DNA from: Eledone cirrhosa
Lineage: Eukaryota
Assembly: GCA_964016885.1 (NCBI GenBank)
Contig: OZ024754.1
Coordinates: 23,622,001 to 23,686,000 of the forward strand
Direction of reading: 5' to 3'
Length of the DNA stretch: 64,000 nt
Shown one piece after another: positions 6,361 through 59,589 of this stretch (within the stretch, counting starts at the first letter, position 1; the number at the start of each line of letters is the position of its first letter). Made by a program: the position numbers and the translations under genes. The notes below the pieces were generated by a model. The model was not told the origin of the DNA, did no database searches, and saw only the letters and a list, made by a program, of their open reading frames with translations.

Positions 6361-7170
6361 ATGGAGGACGTTAAACACTTGGACATTTCTACCACACCTG
6401 TTTCTACCAATATAGATACGGTTACACAGATATACAGTGGTGAGAAACCTTTACCTAGTGAAACATGTACTGAACAAGGATCATTATATAGAAATATTCC
6501 TGAATATAGCTGTGAGATTTGTAGGAAAACTTTCTCATCAGAAGATGAATTATCTACACACAAACACATACATATTAAAGACAAACCCTATCATTGTGAA
6601 GTATGTGGGAAATCTTTTACTGAAACTTCTCATCTTCGTGAACACATACGAAGTCACACAGGAGAGAAACCTTTTCATTGTGAAATGTGTGGGAAATCTT
6701 TCAGTCTGAATTCCAATTTTCTTAGGCATTTACGTAATCACAGTGGGGAAAAACCATTTCACTGTGAAATATGTGGGAAATCTTTCGCTGAGAAAGCTAA
6801 TCTTGTTAGACATATACGTATTCACACTGGAGAGAAACCTTTTCACTGTGAAATATGTGGGAAATATTTTGCTGATAGTGCTGTTCTTATAGGTCACAGA
6901 AGAACACACACTGGAGAGAAACACTTCCATTGTGAAATATGTGGGAAAGCATTTGTAACAAGCAGCAAGTTAACTATACATAAAAGAACACACACTGGAG
7001 AGAAACCCTATCATTGTGAAATATGTGGAAAATCTTTTGTAACAAGCAATTATTTAACTATACATACAAGAACACACACTGGAGAGTGTCCCTATCACTG
7101 TGAAATATGTGGGAAATCTTTTATAAGAAATTGTTATTTAACTGTACATAAAAGAACACACACTGGTTAG
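6361..7170 (+). CDS. C2H2 zinc-finger protein, 8 tandem fingers (2 more in frame after the TAG)
   Basis: 269-aa ORF with CxxC-12x-HxxxH repeats and TGEKP linkers; candidate acceptor cttcag just upstream of the ATG. Confidence 0.9.
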   Translation: MEDVKHLDISTTPVSTNIDTVTQIYSGEKPLPSETCTEQGSLYRNIPEYSCEICRKTFSSEDELSTHKHIHIKDKPYHCEVCGKSFTETSHLREHIRSHTGEKPFHCEMCGKSFSLNSNFLRHLRNHSGEKPFHCEICGKSFAEKANLVRHIRIHTGEKPFHCEICGKYFADSAVLIGHRRTHTGEKHFHCEICGKAFVTSSKLTIHKRTHTGEKPYHCEICGKSFVTSNYLTIHTRTHTGECPYHCEICGKSFIRNCYLTVHKRTHTG

Positions 7171-7350
<180 letters not shown>

Positions 7351-7711
7351 TGAAATATGTGGGAAATATTTCATTAGTAACAGTGAATATAAGGAACAGA
7401 AAATAACACACAATGGTGAAAAAGTTTTTAATATGTGGGAAATCTTTTTCTCTAACAATTACTTAGACACAAACACTCAGAGGAAGGAAAGTTTTTAACT
7501 CTGAAATATGAGACATCCTTCCTCTTACAAATCTAAACTTATTTTCCACCAATATCAAATGTGAATACTTGGCAGTTTGATAGACTCCAAATATTGCTGG
7601 CCATTTTTACAAATATATTTTCATTTGAAATTCAAATCTTTCTCTGATCTATTCTTGACTTTTTGAATTAATTTTAAATCTATGCCAGACATTTCAGCAT
7701 TGGTTTGTCAA

Positions 7712-16387: not shown

Positions 16388-16411
16388 ATGAACTATATTA
16401 GTTCATGGTAT

Positions 16412-17480
<1,069 letters not shown>

Positions 17481-28815: not shown

Positions 28816-29500
28816 ATGTTGTGTGTTTGTGTGTTTGTGTGTGTATGTATATATATGTATATGTTAAACTGGTGTTGACATGTCACCAGGAGAGGAGATG
28901 ATAGCTACGTTAGAAAGTGCTATCAGAATGAATTTTTCGCTAAACTGCCATAGAGCAGACCTCCCAAGAGATAGAAGGATATAATTTATAGAACATGCTG
29001 GAATACCACTGCTTACATTGGAGAGAATTGCTCTGGACAGGAAAGTTGATATCTACATTTATCAATATAGAAATATAAAATTTCCACTGTTAAATCTATC
29101 TCTGCTTCTTAAGTATTCTCTATTATCTCATGCTGCTTCTTTTTCATTTCAGAATACCAGATGACATTGGGATAAATTATTATTTTCAATCTTGGATACA
29201 TCACCTATATTTATTATCATTTCAAGACTAAAATGTCTTATACAGAACTCATATAACACTGTTTATATAAATCTGTTGTCGAATTACTGTGAAATATTTC
29301 CTCAAAACTGAGTTTATTTTCTTCACTATGAGATGATTTTGTATTTTAACTAAACTTGGATGAAACATAAGTTTGTATTATCTTCAGATATTAACTGAAA
29401 TCACAGTTGAGGGAAATATAGAAGATATATTTTTTAGGAATATAATATTAAAAATATTACAAGTAGAGCATCTGTAAATTCTGTTGAAGAAAGTATTATT

Positions 29501-30912
<1,412 letters not shown>

Positions 30913-44926: not shown

Positions 44927-47900
44927 GCATATGCGAAAACACATACCATGCATGAATATACATGCACGTACACATAAACACGAGCACACGGACGTAAACC
45001 GGCGCGACACATATACCCGCGCACGTACGAACGTATACACCAAATACACATATAAATATATGTGTGTGTATATATATAATTATATATACACGCATAAATG
45101 CATATAGAACGCACACTCACACATACCTACAAACGTACATATGCCAAAACCCTATGTACACATATACACACCATACATACGTGCAAACACACATACACAC
45201 TCATACATACACATATATACACATATACATACATACTAGAGGATTATATATCATTGTGTGACGATATGCAAAACATGTTATAGCGTTCTGATACTATTTA
45301 TTCCTAATAGTGCTTTTCATCTCTTGCAGATGTCAATCATTTATTGATACAAATAAAGTGGATGTATTATGAAAAGAGTTCGTGCTCATTTATGATGGAC
45401 ATCATCAATTTATACTTTGCAGAGAAGTTGTTCTAAGACCAAAGTTTATTTATATAGCTGAAATTTAAGACTTCGTTAAGACTTCGTTTCGTATAATTTA
45501 ATGTGAAAGATGCCTACAGTGAAGTGCCCTATCCCACACTGTGATTTTGAGAGAGAAGACCTGTAGTGATCGCTGCACTGCTGACTACACACTCAACAGT
45601 CCACACTACAACACCCAGCATCTCTGCCAAAGTCGAACGGGTCAAGCGGCCTAGCATCTCCTCCGCAGGTCTGGCCCTACTTCATCTCAAGATGGACGGA
45701 TTACGTCGAGGCAACCAAAGTCGCAGGTAAAGACTTCATTGTACAACTCCTTGAGTGCTGTGACGAGACACTACGTAGAGACTTAACAAGAACCGCTGGT
45801 GGCACACTGACAGACAAAACCCAAGCTGATGTCCTCAAGGCCATTCGAGTCCTTGCTGTCCGAGAGGAAAATACCATGGTTGCTTGCGTCACCCTTCACA
45901 GCATGACACAAGACCCTGACGAGACTGTCCGCTCATTTGGTGCTAGACTTAGGGGACAAGCAGGTGTCTGCAAATTTGTCACAGCATGTCCGGGCTGCCA
46001 TCAGGAAGTGAACTACACTGAGGCAATCCTTCGTGACGTACTCACTCATGGACTTAATGACTCTGAATCCGGCTTGACCTCCTCAGAGATAAAAACCAGG
46101 ATATGAGCCTCGAGGAAGTATTTAAATATGTTGAAGCTAAGGAGGCGGGTAAGAGATCAGTGTGACGCTTACTTGATTCCTAGGGTGCCCAGGCTATCAG
46201 CAGTAGCTACCGTCGTAACAAGAAGATCCCACCAGACCACCCCAAAGGATCAGACTTCCAGAAAGAGACCTGCATCTATTGCGGTAAGAGAGGACATGGC
46301 ACACGAGCACCACCAAGGGTCCGAGATAAGGGGTGTACTGCGTACGGTCACACATGCTACTACTGTTCCAGACAAAACCATTTTGAGTCAGTTTGTCGCA
46401 GCAAGGACAGATCCAAGCGGGAAGTGTCCCCAAGACCTCTAGAGAACACGAGGGTGCCATTTTTGATTCCCTATGCGCAGCAATTCATTTAGTATACAAG
46501 CGAGATCACAAGTCCATAACCTGGGCCCACCACATACACGATCAACTATCAGATACATGGACAAGGCAGTCATCTCAACCTCAACCCTTTATCCAACTGA
46601 CAATGAAGGTCCTACATGAAGATTACCATCAACTCGGCTTTGGACACCTCCTTAAATCCAAATCTAAGACAAGCCCACTCTTTGCCATGGCTGATACAGG
46701 CTGCCAGAGCTGTCTTGCCGGGGTGAAGGTCTTGCACAAGCTTGGACTCAAGACCTCTGACCTCATCCCAGTAACACCGAGGATGCTGAAAACAATAAAG
46801 GCATCCCCATCCTTGGAGCCGTCTTTGTTCGCCTTTCAGGTCAAGACTCCACTGGTGAACTGATCGAAACTCGCCAACTTGTATACATCACAGACAACTC
46901 AGACAAGTTCTTCTTCAGACAAGTTTGCCGACTGGTACAGGTTCGATTACACCCAGTTGGACATCTTGGGATGATCACAGATAACTTTGCAACTATCGGC
47001 GAGGTCAGTGGTAGTGTGAATGCAGCTGCATCCTCAGGTGACAACCAAACACATCAATTACAGGACCAAGACAAAGTGGAATGCGAATGCCCAAGACGAA
47101 CACTGCCACCACCCCTGCCAATCAAATTACCCTACCCTGCAAGAGAGGAAAATCGCGAGGAATTTGAGCGCTACCTTCTTGATCGGTACAAATCAAGCAT
47201 GTTCAATACCTGCGTACACCAACCCCTTCCCCTTATGGAGAGCCCCCTATGAAACTGATGGTGGATCCCAACGCCACACCTATAGCTCATCACACTCCAA
47301 TACCCGTGCCGCTCCACTGGCGAGAGGCAGTCAAGGCCGGCCTCGACCAAGATGTCCAACTGGGTGTAATCGAACCTGTACCAGTCGGCAAACTTGTCAC
47401 TTGGTGCCATAGGATGGTTGTCTGCCCAAAGAAAAATGGTAAACCCCGCCGCACCGTGAATTTCCAGGCTCTCAACGCCCATGCAATAAGGTAAACCCAC
47501 CACACACAATCTCCATTCCACGAAGCATGCTCGGTACCATCAGACAAGAAGAAAACTGTATTCGATGCCTGGAACGGCTACCACAGGTACCAATCCGTGA
47601 TGAAAGGAATCACTTAACCACATTCATCACGCCATGGGGAAGATACCGCTACCTGACTTCCCCCCAAGGCTACATTGCGTCAGGTGATGGATACACAAGG
47701 GGATTCGATGAGATCATCTCTGACGTACAAAACAAGACTAAATGCGTCGACGACACCTTGCTGTGGTTTGACAACATTGAAGATAGCTTCTTCCGTGCCT
47801 GTGAATGGCCAGACCTCTGTGGCAGAAACGGAATAACCTTAAACCCAGAGAAATTTGTCTTTGCCAAGGGCACAGTCGAATTTGCAGGCTTTGAGATCAC

Positions 47901-50016
47901 ATGCAACAGCGTCAGACCGTGCGAAAAATACCTCCAAGCCATCATTGACTTCCCCACGCCAACCAACATCTCCAACATGCGCTCTTGGTTTGGTCTCATC
48001 AATCAAGTCTCCTACCCCTTCAGCATGGCCGACAGGATGCAACCATTCCGCAAGCTACTGAAACCAGGAACACCATTCCAATGGAATGACCAGCTGGACA
48101 AACTCGTTGAAGAATCTAAGAGTGTGATTGTCAGTGATATAGAAGAGGGTGTACGCAAATTTGACACCAGAAAACCTACATGTCTCGCCACTGATTGGTC
48201 GAAAGACGGCATTGGATTCTGGCTGTTCCAGAAACACTGCACATGCCCAAAGACAGTCCCAATTATCTGTCGTGAAGGATGGAAGGTTACACTGGTCGGA
48301 AGTCGCTTCACCCAAGCGGCAGAATCACGCTACGCACCAATTGAAGGCGAGGCTCTCGCTGTCGCTGACACACTGGACAAAGCGAGGTATCTCATTCTGG
48401 GCTGCACCAACCTCACCCTAGCGGTAGACCACAAACCACTACTCAAGATATTCAGTGATCAATCCCTGGAAAGGATTTCTAATACTCGTCTTCGCAACTT
48501 GAAGGAAAAGACCTGTAGTGATCGCTGCACTGCTGACTACACACTCAACAGTCCACACTATAACACCCAGCTATAGCTTCAAGATGATTCATATTCCCGG
48601 GGCAAGACACTGAGCTGCTGATGCTGTATCTCGACACCCATGTGACCCTGGAGACAAGATGATTCCAGAGGATTCAGCAGCCATCAATACCTCCAGCCAA
48701 CCATCTATTCAGAAACTCGTACTCGCCTCCATAAGACATGGTGACCAACCAGATAACCCAATCGAAGATTCTACCTTCCTCTCAGCCGTGTCATCCATCA
48801 ACTCACTCCAATCAATCACTTGGGACAAGGTTCAAGAAGCCACCAACAGCGATGAAAACATGACTAAACTGGTGGATATGATAGAAACAGGGATGCCAGA
48901 GGACTGCCTTAGCCCGCCATTCGTGAATATCATCAATTCCGAGAGCACCTACACTCAGTGGACGGCGTGGCTCTCTACAAAGACCGCATTGTCATCCCAC
49001 CATCACTCCGACACAACGTTCTAACAGCACTCCACTCCGCCCACCAAGGCATATCTTCTATGATGTCAAGGGCCGAATCGTCTGACTTCTGGTCTGGAAT
49101 TACAACAGCAATCACAGAGCTCAGGAATACATCTGCCCACTGCAATCTCAAGCATGTGCTCCACCTACCCCGCCAGTATACCCTTCCAGTGCATTTGCGC
49201 TGACTACTTCCACTACAAAGGGGTGAACTATCTGGTCATTGTTAACAGATACTCCAACTGGCCGATCGTAGAGAGATCTCGGGAAGGTGCCAAAGGCCTA
49301 ATTGACAGTCTACGCCGTACATTTGTCACTTTTGGAATTCCAGACGAACTGTCCTCAGATGGTGGCACTGAGTTTACAGCCTCAGCAGCCAAGGATTTCT
49401 TGAAAAACTGGGGTGTTCATCATCGACTCTCTTCAGTCGCCTTCCCCCACAGCAACTGTCGGGCAGAAGTCGGTGTTAAAACTGTGAAACGTCTTATTAC
49501 AGACAACACGGGACCCAACGGCGAGTTAGACACGGACTCACTGCAACGTGCCATGCTGCAATACAGAAACACCCCAGACAGAGACACCAAGTTATCCCCT
49601 GCAATGTGTGTCTTTGGTAGACCCATTAAGGATTTCATTCCAATCCTTCCCGGCCGCTACAAGCCTCATGACACCTGGCTGGACACACTTGCCTTGAGAG
49701 AAGCTGCCCTCAGAAACAGGCACATGAAGATTGCAGAACGCCTTTTTGAACAGACCAAGCGATTGCCACCCCTTGTCATTGGAGATCTCGTGCGAATACA
49801 AAATCAAACAGGCCCTCAACCGTTAAAATGGGACAAAACAGGCTGTGTGATTGAAGTTCGTCAGTTTGATCAGTATATCATACGCGTAGATAGATCAGGC
49901 AGAGTGGCCCTTCGAAACCGGAAATTTCTAAGAAAGTACACCCCTGTTCATCCACCGAGGGCACAGATCACCTTATCAGAAGACTTACCCCATCGATCCC
50001 AACAAAGACAACAAGG

Positions 50017-50443
50017 TGTAGTGAACAAAATTAAATGTATTTTCCTTTGTGATTAAATGTATTTTCCTTTGGCGGAAGAATGGTGTCACAGAGGTAAATT
50101 GGCTGAAGTGGAGCCAATCAAGGCCCTCAGCGGATCGAGACAAGTTGCTGGACTACTTGAACCAGAGACACAGTTGGCTGACAGGGCAGAGACAGAGTTC
50201 ACTGAACGACCTGGTAGCATCAAGACTTCCGACATTTGATATGCCACATTCTTTCACATCTCCACTGGAATATGCAGCCAAGACGATGTGAAGACTTGCT
50301 CAACCTTCTCTTGTTATTTCGATTCCATATTTGTACAACAAATAAAAGGGAATTTTTGTTATAATGGATTCTGTCGTTTTCGTCATTGCCTTCTGAATCG
50401 ATAACTATATTAATATCTCCAGCGATACTTAATCAACGTTATA
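50017..50443 (+). mobile_element. Solo LTR nested in the Gypsy element
   Basis: AAGG|TGTAGTG...CGTTATA|AAGG 4-bp TSD; AATAAA at ~50342. Confidence 0.75.
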
Positions 50444-50859
50444 AAGGTATGTCTTTCTCGCCCGCCAACCATTTATTTCGGAGCCCCTGCTCGCAAAGGA
50501 CACCACCAAAGCTCCTCAAAATCCTACAGATCTGCAAATGACACTATCACCCAACCTGACAACGCTTGACATCCAGCCATCGCCACCGTCGCCACCACGC
50601 CCAGCTATCCAGCCACCAGAGTTACATCCCCTAGCCTACCACACTACATTCAAAACAAGTAGCACAACACCTACCTCAGCACCCTGCCTAACACCCTCCC
50701 TGACCAACACACAGGAACTAACACTAAGACGCTCCTCCCGGACCAAGAAGGAGCCCACCTGGCTCAGTGATTATGTGCATGTGATTGGGGCAGATTAATC
50801 CCCGGGGGCCTGAGGGTAGTCTGCCCAGTGATCGCCCTTCTCCTTTCGGTTTGTGATCG

Positions 50860-50957
50860 CGCCGAGGTTAACTTTGCCTTTCATCCTTACGGGGTCGATA
50901 AAATAAAGTACCAGTAATGCACTAGGTAATTGCTGGCCTTGTGCCAAAAGTAGAAAC
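50860..50957 (+). mobile_element. SINE 3' half inside the Gypsy 3' region
   Basis: cgccgaggttaactttgcctttcatcc...gtgccaaaagtagaaac. Confidence 0.8.
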
Positions 50958-51250
50958 TTTCTATTGACGTTAATTGTTCCCACCTGGCCAGGATGGCACT
51001 GTCTTCAAAACATTCAGTTTATTCTCATATCTGACTCTAGTCTTAAATCCTTGCTATATACCTCAGCGAATATACCAATGACATGGAGGGGGATAGAGGA
51101 TTATATATCATTGTTTGACGATATGCAAAACATGTTATAGCGTTCTGATACTATTTATTCCTAATAGTGCTTTTCATCTCTTTCAGATGTCCATCATTTA
51201 TTTATACAAATAAAGTGGATGTATTATGAAAAATGTTCGTGCTCATTTAT

Positions 51251-56689: not shown

Positions 56690-57561
<872 letters not shown>

Positions 57562-57912
57562 ATTTCTAGCTAGTGATCTTTGCATAAAGGAATCTCACCA
57601 CTTTTACTCATACATTAAGAAATGTAGGTATGCTATGTAGTCTATGATACAATGAGTCCATAAAATACTGCAGAACTCGGCTTTCTTCTTCTACAAAGTT
57701 GTAATGTAGCATTCAGTTGGTACAAGTAATAAGACGTATGACAGCGTAAGAGATCTTGCACGAATAATAAGGAAGTGCTTATATATATATATGCGTGTGT
57801 GTGATTATTGTAGAGTATACCACTATTAGTTTTGCTCATGTGAGAGAAGCTCTATTCACCTTAAAATCCTCAGCTCATAAAACAAACGAAAAAGTCCTCT
57901 ATGGTTAAGGTT

Positions 57913-59386
57913 TATAGCGAGGATACTGGGTGTATGAATGTAACAAAACGAGACATTGTTTGTGTATATAATATTTAATTAACGGTAGATAGAATACTTG
58001 ACATGTCAAAGATAGATGTTAGAATGAAACAAAGTTAGTAGTTACCGTTTTGATTGCCAGGCAAACGCGGCTGGCAGAGGGCGCCTGGCTAAGGCCAGGC
58101 GCCTGTTGGCCAAATTAATGGCAGAGCCAAATGAGAAGACTCTTGACCTGGTGCCGAAAAGGCAAAGAGAGAGAGGAAGCTTAAAGTTGTTAGTTTTATA
58201 GGGCTCTGACCGGAAGTCGTAGAAAGGGTTCCACCTCCCGTCTAGATCCCAATCAAAACAAGGGAGACAGCCGCTACATAACCTCCCGCCAGAATTTTAG
58301 TGTATAAAAATCGAAATGAAAATATGTAGCAAGTTGGCGAGAATGTTGTAACAGGCATGAAAATTACGACAAAAGAATGTTTGGAAAAATCAATGATAGA
58401 TATCAAGGTAGCCAACCGCTCTTGGCCAGAGAACGACTGGACATCCATCTATCCATCACCCAAAGATACAATGTAATAAAGTAAAAGTAATAGAAGAGCT
58501 CAAAGTTCAAAATATAGTTCACAGGTGTGCAATCACATGACAGCAGGAAAGAAAGTGTGTTCCAGAGAATGAATGCAGGTGGTTTCTGTTCTGTGGTATA
58601 TCGTGAAATTTCCAACCTCCGAATGGATTTTCTCACAGGAAGAGTGCTGCAAAAATGAATTCTCTGGCTTTTGTTTTGAAAGAGTTCGTTGTAAGAAACG
58701 AGAAACATATATATATATCGTGAAATGTTTTTTTTGTTTTGAAAGTGTTCGTTGTAAGAAACGAGAAACATATATATATATATTGGTGAAATGCGACAGT
58801 TAATTGATGCGTGAGAGAAAAAGTATGTCTGTGCGAATTCCACATGTGCGTGTGTGCGTGTCCTTGAGTATTTTCATAGTTTGTCGCTAAATTTGCTGTG
58901 TATTCGTAATGTTACTCACAAAACCAGATGTGCTATTTTTTTCTTTTTTTTTGGGGGGGGGGGGGGTGACCACTTATAGCGATGAACGGCTGCGTGTTCG
59001 TATCACGTCGGGGTCACCAATATAGCGAGGATACTGGGTGTATGAATGTAACAAAACGAGACATTGTTTGTGTATATAATATTTAATTAACGGTAGATAG
59101 AATACTTGACATGTCAAAGATAGATGTTAGAATGAAACAAAGTTAGTAGTTACCGTTTTGATTGCCAGGCAAACGCGGCTGGCAGAGGGCGCCTGGCTAA
59201 GGCCAGGCGCCTGTTGGCCAAATTAATGGCAGAGCCAAATGAGAAGACTCTTGACCTGGTGCCGAAAAGGCAAAGAGAGAGAGGAAGCTTAAAGTTGTTA
59301 GTTTTATAGGGCTCTGACCGGAAGTCGTAGAAAGGGTTCCACCTCCCGTCTAGATCCCAATCAAAACAAGGGAGACAACCGCTACA
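57913..59386 (-). mobile_element. Young non-coding LTR retrotransposon (TRIM-like, 1474 bp)
   Basis: 366-bp LTRs 57913-58278 and 59021-59386 (one difference seen), GGTT TSD, tRNA-Trp PBS, PPT ggcgggagg, no recognisable ORF, ~60-bp internal tandem duplication. Confidence 0.95.
58988..59019 (-). promoter_or_regulatory. Extended tRNA-Trp primer-binding site (32 nt)
   Basis: + strand GGCTGCGTGTTCGtATCACGTCGGGGTCACCA equals the metazoan tRNA-Trp 3' end including CCA, with one mismatch. Confidence 0.9.
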
Positions 59387-59589
59387 GGTTCTTGTTATTG
59401 AGGACAGTTCAGGTCACAAGAGAATTAATATTCATAATTTCAAAAGACGAAATTTAATATATATACAGACATACAGTGTGTAGGTATGAGAGAGAAATAA
59501 ATAGACGTGTGTGTGTGTAGAAATATGTGTGTACGTGTTGTAATAATTCAAGATATTTCACTTCAGATAGTTAAAAAGTTCAATGTTTG

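Follow-up and report, generated by a model that had tools for sequence, protein, structure and literature searches.

A non-autonomous LTR element in the genome of Eledone cirrhosa carries, directly behind its 5' LTR, a 32-nt complement of tRNA-Trp that departs from the tRNA at position 58 and is followed by a second LTR end and a second primer binding site (PBS). This extended and doubled PBS probably originated in a rare event in which reverse transcriptase (RT) read through the presumably methylated A58 of the primer tRNA and an aberrant plus-strand transfer followed. The element lies on the minus strand of a 64,000-nt stretch of contig OZ024754.1 (assembly GCA_964016885.1, positions 23,622,001 to 23,686,000), which we call the window, and its parts are listed in table 1.

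Table 1. Parts of the LTR element in the window, ordered from its 5' to its 3' end.
Feature	Window positions	Strand	Basis or remark
LTR element, whole	57913-59386	-	two 366-bp LTRs, 99.7% mutual identity
5' target-site duplication (TSD) AACC	59387-59390	-	same 4 bases beyond 3' LTR
5' LTR, 366 bp, TGTAG...CGCTATA	59021-59386	-	99.7% identical to 57913-58278
PBS1 core, 18 nt, complement of tRNA-Trp 76-59 including CCA	59002-59019	-	host gene alignment
A opposite tRNA position 58 (T expected)	59001	-	alignment to host tRNA-Trp
13-nt extension, complement of tRNA-Trp 57-45 (T arm to variable loop)	58988-59000	-	
Junction GTTCA, resembling a motif in U5 some 25 nt ahead of the LTR end	58983-58987	-	family-copy U5 sequence
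Second LTR end (TCGCTATA) and 2-nt spacer	58973-58982	-	sequence
PBS2, short, degenerate, running into a C tract	58953-58972	-	equals the only PBS of subfamily A0
Non-coding internal region	58292-58952	-	about 640 bp short of a full-length family copy, break near 58672
Polypurine tract (PPT)	58279-58291	-	precedes 3' LTR
3' LTR	57913-58278	-	99.7% identity to 5' LTR
3' target-site duplication AACC	57909-57912	-	flank of 3' LTR

When aligned with a host tRNA-Trp(CCA) gene (the ARAGORN call at L064:1002-1075) to which CCA had been added, window positions 58988-59019 are identical at 31 of 32 positions, the match spanning CCA and tRNA positions 73-45, starting 1 nt past the 5' LTR end and failing only at tRNA position 58 (window 59001). 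The single-mismatch tRNA copy of the original prediction is thereby borne out against the host's own gene. The same is true of its inclusion of CCA, which the host genes lack, of the duplicated LTR end and PBS behind the 32-mer (58987-58963, reading GTTCA, TCGCTATA, AG and TGGTCACCCC in that order), and of the clean TSD and near-identical LTRs. The 3' LTR stops short of PBS1, which is therefore the PBS normally used, and the GTTCA junction looks like the scar of a template switch. A search of 3.0 Gb gave 144 matches to the real pattern and none to a reversed-pattern control. An assembly error at 59001 is unlikely, because the differences listed for same-species raw Illumina reads include no other letter there; the same reads show the core variants of the family at 59010 and 59015. 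A viral sequence collection contained no match to the element, and contigs of two other organisms held short matching pieces only, none of them across the junction. PBS1 and PBS2 could form a hairpin in subfamily A1 (window 58960-59020), which is not significant (z -1.58).

The presence of CCA and the start of the match 1 nt after the LTR indicate that the template was the mature primer tRNA. Capture at the DNA level of a tRNA gene, a pseudogene or a tRNA-derived SINE could have drawn on the degenerate tRNA-Trp genes present in the genome, but we regard it as extremely improbable: the copy has a CCA that host genes do not encode, in some 30 lineages it is antisense and has its start precisely where the PBS belongs, and neither ARAGORN nor Rfam detects a tRNA gene at the site or anywhere in the window.

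The original prediction treated the structure as a genomic fossil that might propagate. The structure is real and it did propagate, but as the trait of a family rather than as a single fossil: the junction occurs in at least 424 genomic copies (a minimum, as the end filter of the pattern loses some). Full copies of this family, here family A, measure about 2.1 kb, against 1474 bp for the window copy, and a 4-bp TSD flanks 28 of the 37 copies that could be scored among 59 examined. No coding remnant was detected in family A by comparison with helper Gag/Pol or with Pfam. In full copies the 3' part of the internal region is homologous to another family, X, the two sharing about 500 bp before the PPT at 80-92% identity. 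Family X has Gag and Pol frames with a CHCC motif (CX2HX9CX3C) and a GPY motif as well as a plain 18-nt PBS, and X-A chimeras exist (L298, L129, L130, L157, L160); X is the putative helper that would supply proteins to family A. Both motifs, the CHCC of Gag and GPY, recur in family B, whose Pol comprises RT, RNase H and integrase domains and has Ty3 as its nearest relative among solved structures.

The CsRn1 lineage of Gypsy elements is defined by the CHCC and GPY motifs, a tRNA-Trp PBS and a 4-bp TSD (PMC2582038, PMC3630058). The window element has the tRNA-Trp PBS and the 4-bp TSD (AACC), while the CHCC of Gag and the GPY that follows integrase, absent from the element itself as it is non-coding, are present in families X and B; it is probably a non-coding derivative of a CsRn1-lineage Gypsy family. 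It differs from that lineage in lacking coding capacity and in its extended and doubled PBS, a feature not mentioned in the available parts of PMC2582038 and PMC3630058. With two LTRs, a PBS, a PPT, a 4-bp TSD, no coding sequence and a putative Gypsy helper, it resembles a TRIM, but at 1474 bp (about 2.1 kb in full copies) it exceeds the limit of <1000 bp given for TRIMs (PMC10886601), and we class it solely as a non-autonomous LTR element. The tRNA-like promoter sequence of Helenus/TRIMp3 is situated inside the LTRs (PMC10886601), whereas here an antisense complement stands at the PBS, outside the LTR; the two PBSs of Drosophila Gypsy (PMC1635307) likewise represent a different arrangement.

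The original prediction had proposed that variable bases at position 58 would speak for recurrent read-through and a fixed base for a single founding event. In the first 100 of at least 424 places listed by an unbiased search for the junction, 97 copies have A at position 58, three have G and none has T. A genome-wide search for any other base than A at 58 next to the family junction returned six matches, all G, and no copy with T58, in a search whose end filter missed at least two more G copies and misses some family copies. The A at 58 is thus fixed in the family and was inherited from one founding event rather than remade in each cycle. Recurrent read-through within the family was accordingly dropped as an explanation, as no T58 copy was found and G58 is matched by an A-to-G change at position 65, likewise present in 3 of the 100 copies. 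These A-to-G changes at 58 and 65 could reflect RNA editing if the host edits heavily.

The 18-nt core behaves differently from position 58. Among the same 100 copies the tRNA-type base is found at position 72 in 20, at position 67 in 10 and at position 58 in none; 80 copies carry the non-tRNA base at both 72 and 67, 10 have the tRNA base at 72 alone, another 10 have it at both positions and none has it at 67 alone, so that the perfect core of the window copy is a minority state (10/100). The fully tRNA-type core requires 18 changes on a poorly resolved tree of 72 A1 rows, against a mean of 18.4 after shuffling, and is thus scattered over the tree rather than clustered; it is found on 8 of 36 haplotypes of the U5 end. 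(One later genome search, whose end filter left out typical A1 copies, is uninformative on the A72/C67 class.) The core thus appears to be refreshed from the primer tRNA, overwriting position 72 in 20%, 67 in 10% and 58 in none, and the extension to be passed on through the RNA of the element; since the core reverts but position 58 never does, ordinary plus-strand copying appears to stop at or before 58. Progeny of HIV and SIV similarly inherit the PBS sequence of either the tRNA or the genome (PMC4549124), but inheritance in family A is polar, lies well below 50% and is recorded in natural germline copies. The U5 end adjoining the PBS (window 59021-59045, as seen across family copies) is hypervariable, with 36 haplotypes of an 11-nt stretch per 100 copies, possibly owing to error-prone initiation of minus-strand synthesis.

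Inspection by eye shows A58 in every one of the 56 host tRNA-Trp genes whose anticodon arm is intact, and none of them encodes CCA; positions 57 and 47 vary among them. That A58 is methylated to m1A in the host tRNA-Trp is our presumption (compare PMC13191261). One degenerate gene in a tandem cluster (L063:4788-4861, G000:C4) has U58, a change that we take to hit the B box and to leave transcription of the gene doubtful. Its existence formally contradicts the original prediction, for which a host gene with T at 58 was a refutation, and it raises the prospect that the template was an unmethylatable U58 variant and that the A is a faithful copy. The position-49 variant of this gene also occurs in 3 of 19 A2 copies, and an A58U tRNA is indeed known to alter the strong-stop product of HIV (PMC13191261). 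The gene, however, differs from its neighbours also at 49, 37 and 32, and all 100 sampled A1 copies are canonical at 49; the position-49 variant is also shared by lineages whose base at 58 is T or G, and no host gene accounts for the G or C seen there. A U58 template is therefore very unlikely in our judgement. Positions 58 and 37 are sites where RT errs on methylated bases, and the variants of this gene may have arisen by chance, through conversion by a tRNA cDNA or as an error of the assembly.

A point missed by the original prediction is that such an extension is common among tRNA-Trp-primed elements. Perfect PBS sites followed by a base other than A (the 100 listed of 196) fall, as judged by eye, into 59 that end at 18 nt, 34 with an extension and seven inverted junctions, and a further 37 tRNA-Trp PBS sites are mostly plain; the exact 18-nt stop is common in tRNA-Trp-primed elements, family X included. 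After the exact 18-nt PBS the next base is A in nine, G in eight, T in four and C in two of 23 plain-PBS contexts among the fetched loci, and may possibly have been added opposite position 58 before the stop. From fetched loci we curated by hand 30 further lineages, all tRNA-Trp-primed and distinct from the seed family, whose extensions end between positions 51 and 28. (Omitted were L144 and the L304 type as too decayed, L156, L162 and L299 for decay or shortness, and any lineage that had not been fetched; L302/L183, which is polymorphic, counted as T at 58.) Position 58 is mismatched in 6 of the 30 lineages, compared with 15 of 343 sites at positions 52-38 (p=0.004), positions 57-53 not being counted, as they had been fixed in several of the searches. 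The next most mismatched position is the CpG position 50 (4/28). Transversions, counted by hand, are found at 58 in 4 of 30 lineages and elsewhere in the extensions at 3 of 343 sites (p=0.001). The misincorporation at 58 proposed originally is in this respect supported, as mismatches do concentrate there across lineages; nevertheless, 24 of the 30 carry the correct base, and misincorporation is therefore the minority outcome of read-through. An automatic clustering of lineages (8/30 versus 10/324) was discarded in favour of the hand curation, as it broke up family A and lumped together events that are unrelated. Position 58 is also the site of insertions, seen in L161, L163 and L303, in family B and the L171/176/303 family, and L144 has a decayed copy of a whole tRNA after the LTR end.

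The same counts bear on the idea that read-through was faithful, giving T58, and that a point mutation in the founder later changed T to A. Later mutation at 58 is possible in any single lineage, T is the base in 24 of the 30, and the background mismatch rate of 4.4% per site would allow it. T-to-A is, however, a transversion, a type of change found about 15 times more often at 58 than in the rest of the extensions; nor was a T58 copy with the family junction found. For the founder of family A we consider this course of events very improbable, much as we do a U58 template. Misincorporation during read-through, the preferred reading, has to reckon with G as the commonest wrong base in the other lineages (3/6), though its in vitro signal in the m1A-A context is low (PMC4787781).

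As a second signature, position 37 is merely a hint. It is clean in one case, L070, where a mismatch at 37 is followed by nine matches (one of eight curated lineages reaching past 37); the automated count of 3/10 is no more than suggestive because two of the ends are ambiguous, and metagenomes add one case (L276). The metagenome scan gave 19 matches, among them two prokaryotic-type tRNA-Glu genes and one full tRNA-Trp. In the 17 non-Glu matches position 58 is T in 13, C in three and G in one, scored against the Eledone tRNA, which may not be that of their own hosts. One metagenomic structure (L275/L286) combines an extension to position 45 with a second LTR-like end and PBS, followed by a DUF7041 Gag start like that of family X. 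The LTR at L275:600-720 contains an older complement of the tRNA-Trp T arm with C at 58, which suggests that LTRs can absorb earlier extended PBSs.

Duplication of the LTR end has counterparts as well. In L141 and L142 an LTR, a PBS and an extension to position 36-37 are followed by the LTR end again and then by host flank, with an ATC(T) microhomology at the jump; both are flanked by TA/TG microsatellite, which in L142 would fit a TSD and in L141 misses one by a single base. L169 represents another double-PBS event of that lineage, with T58, the other position-57 isodecoder and a different junction, and L172 is a further double-PBS case. The extra unit is part of the 3' LTR in L233, where the duplicated end lies directly against the TSD (TGAG), so that a duplicated end and PBS can evidently serve both priming and integration. 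Head-to-head junctions recur too (L129, L130, L157-L160; seven among the 100 listed of 196), with an LTR and 18-nt PBS joined to the leader and LTR of family A in reverse complement and an ATC microhomology at the fusion. Internal deletions from the strong-stop boundary fuse the 18-nt PBS to internal family A sequence (L298; G000:C3:276744938, C4:5696037, C28:62946997). Three LTRs, or PBS units of 46-47 nt repeated two or three times in tandem, are seen in the copies L003/L074, L015/L233, L018, L229 and L312, this unit having expanded repeatedly.

The original prediction also overlooked that PBS2 is likely the original site. Subfamily A0 has a short PBS only, followed by an A run, and as PBS2 equals this single PBS the upstream tRNA copy is likely the addition. 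Inspection by eye of the 100 listed of 160 matches to the A0 PBS motif shows a double PBS in 16 and a single one in most of the rest. The median LTR divergence is 3.0% in A0 (n=15), 2.7% in A2 (n=14) and 0.7% in A1 (n=16), A0 and A2 being alike (p=0.68). Unrooted trees put A2 between A0 and A1, and rooting on helper X nests single-PBS A0 inside double-PBS copies, with an outgroup that is not monophyletic; neither LTR age nor helper-X rooting gives a firm polarity of single and double PBS.

Could the extension instead be a maintained function, either as a long over-extension sequence or as an extended primer-pairing site? Under such a function position 58 would drift, because a methylated A cannot pair. 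Lentiviruses and spumaviruses offer a precedent (HIV in particular), with tRNA-complementary bases right after the PBS that serve products ending at 55-54 (PMC13191261). In the window element a tRNA complement likewise adjoins the 18-nt PBS on its downstream side, but this reaches to 45 (to 28 or beyond in other lineages), has a mismatch at 58 and is followed by a duplicated LTR end. The 13 extension columns contain no lineage-marking substitution, the autonomous families B, L302/183 and L171/176 keep the extension upstream of gag, and the young and abundant subfamily A1 carries it. Against this, rare variants are as frequent in the extension (3 departures per 1300 sites) as in neighbouring internal sequence (10 per 3515, p=1.0), and selection was not detected by this comparison; frequent productive over-extension should leave T58 copies, of which none was found with end filters that miss some copies; and end points range from 51 to 28, with many active families having no extension at all. 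We judge a maintained function unlikely, though it can coexist with an origin by read-through.

Under the read-through origin the events might be pictured as follows. During plus-strand synthesis RT would once have read past the presumably methylated A58 of the primer tRNA-Trp, placing an A opposite it, and copying would have run on to position 45 before stopping or switching. The plus strand would then have missed the primer site and re-annealed in U5, close to the LTR end, in two jumps, doubling the LTR end and the primer site, and the product would have integrated. From then on the extension would be inherited through element RNA, with each cycle stopping at or before 58 and refreshing the core only.

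Much of this resembles what is known from other systems. In retroviruses tRNA sequence occurs at circle junctions, strand-transfer errors occur in single-round vectors, and dual-PBS HIV and MLV vectors exist; evidence for the m1A58 stop in vivo comes largely from HIV and MLV experiments. Retroviral plus-strand strong stop occurs at m1A58, with minor products past 58, while unmodified tRNA is copied in full by RT; long read-through products are described as unable to complete transfer or to integrate (PMC8599865, PMC13191261). The 18-nt boundary is shared with the elements studied here, but here products of the read-through type were integrated in the germline, one of them heading a family of at least 424 copies. 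In vitro, m1A causes RT arrest and misincorporation, including that of dATP (PMC4787781); that signature is an artefact of RNA-seq, whereas here it would be a heritable genomic sequence, with more G than predicted. Our literature search, mostly without subscription papers or Repbase reports, returned no description of integrated long read-through PBSs in retrotransposons.

Every single step thus has laboratory precedent, and the integrated, heritable outcome is the new part: products described as a dead end were rescued, integrated and in one case expanded. The genome holds hundreds of natural outcomes of the process in the form of sharp 18-nt stops, polar primer inheritance within one family, about 30 independent read-throughs and errors enriched at 58. 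The chances appear evenly balanced that tRNA-Trp-primed Gypsy elements repeatedly make over-extended plus-strand DNA heritable, that the m1A58 pattern (and possibly that of m1G37) is written into germlines, and that leaders and LTR ends are rebuilt by cycles of read-through and duplication. If so, assemblies alone would yield an in vivo map of the points on modified tRNA at which the RT of retrotransposons halts, makes errors and jumps, and one could measure from them the fidelity of the stop site, the spectrum of errors on modified bases and the mistakes of plus-strand transfer. It would also show how LTRs could acquire sequence derived from tRNA and represent a possible mechanism for double PBSs and tRNA fragments inside LTRs.

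The window contains other repeats. A second, decayed Gypsy-type element lies on the plus strand at 45237-51250, with pol-like frames (47443-50056) between 157-bp direct repeats (96%); behind the first of these repeats no tRNA-type PBS was recognised. C2H2 zinc-finger repeats with an 84-bp unit form arrays at 6500-7450, 16400-17450, 29500-30900 and 56700-57500, and in several the frame is broken.
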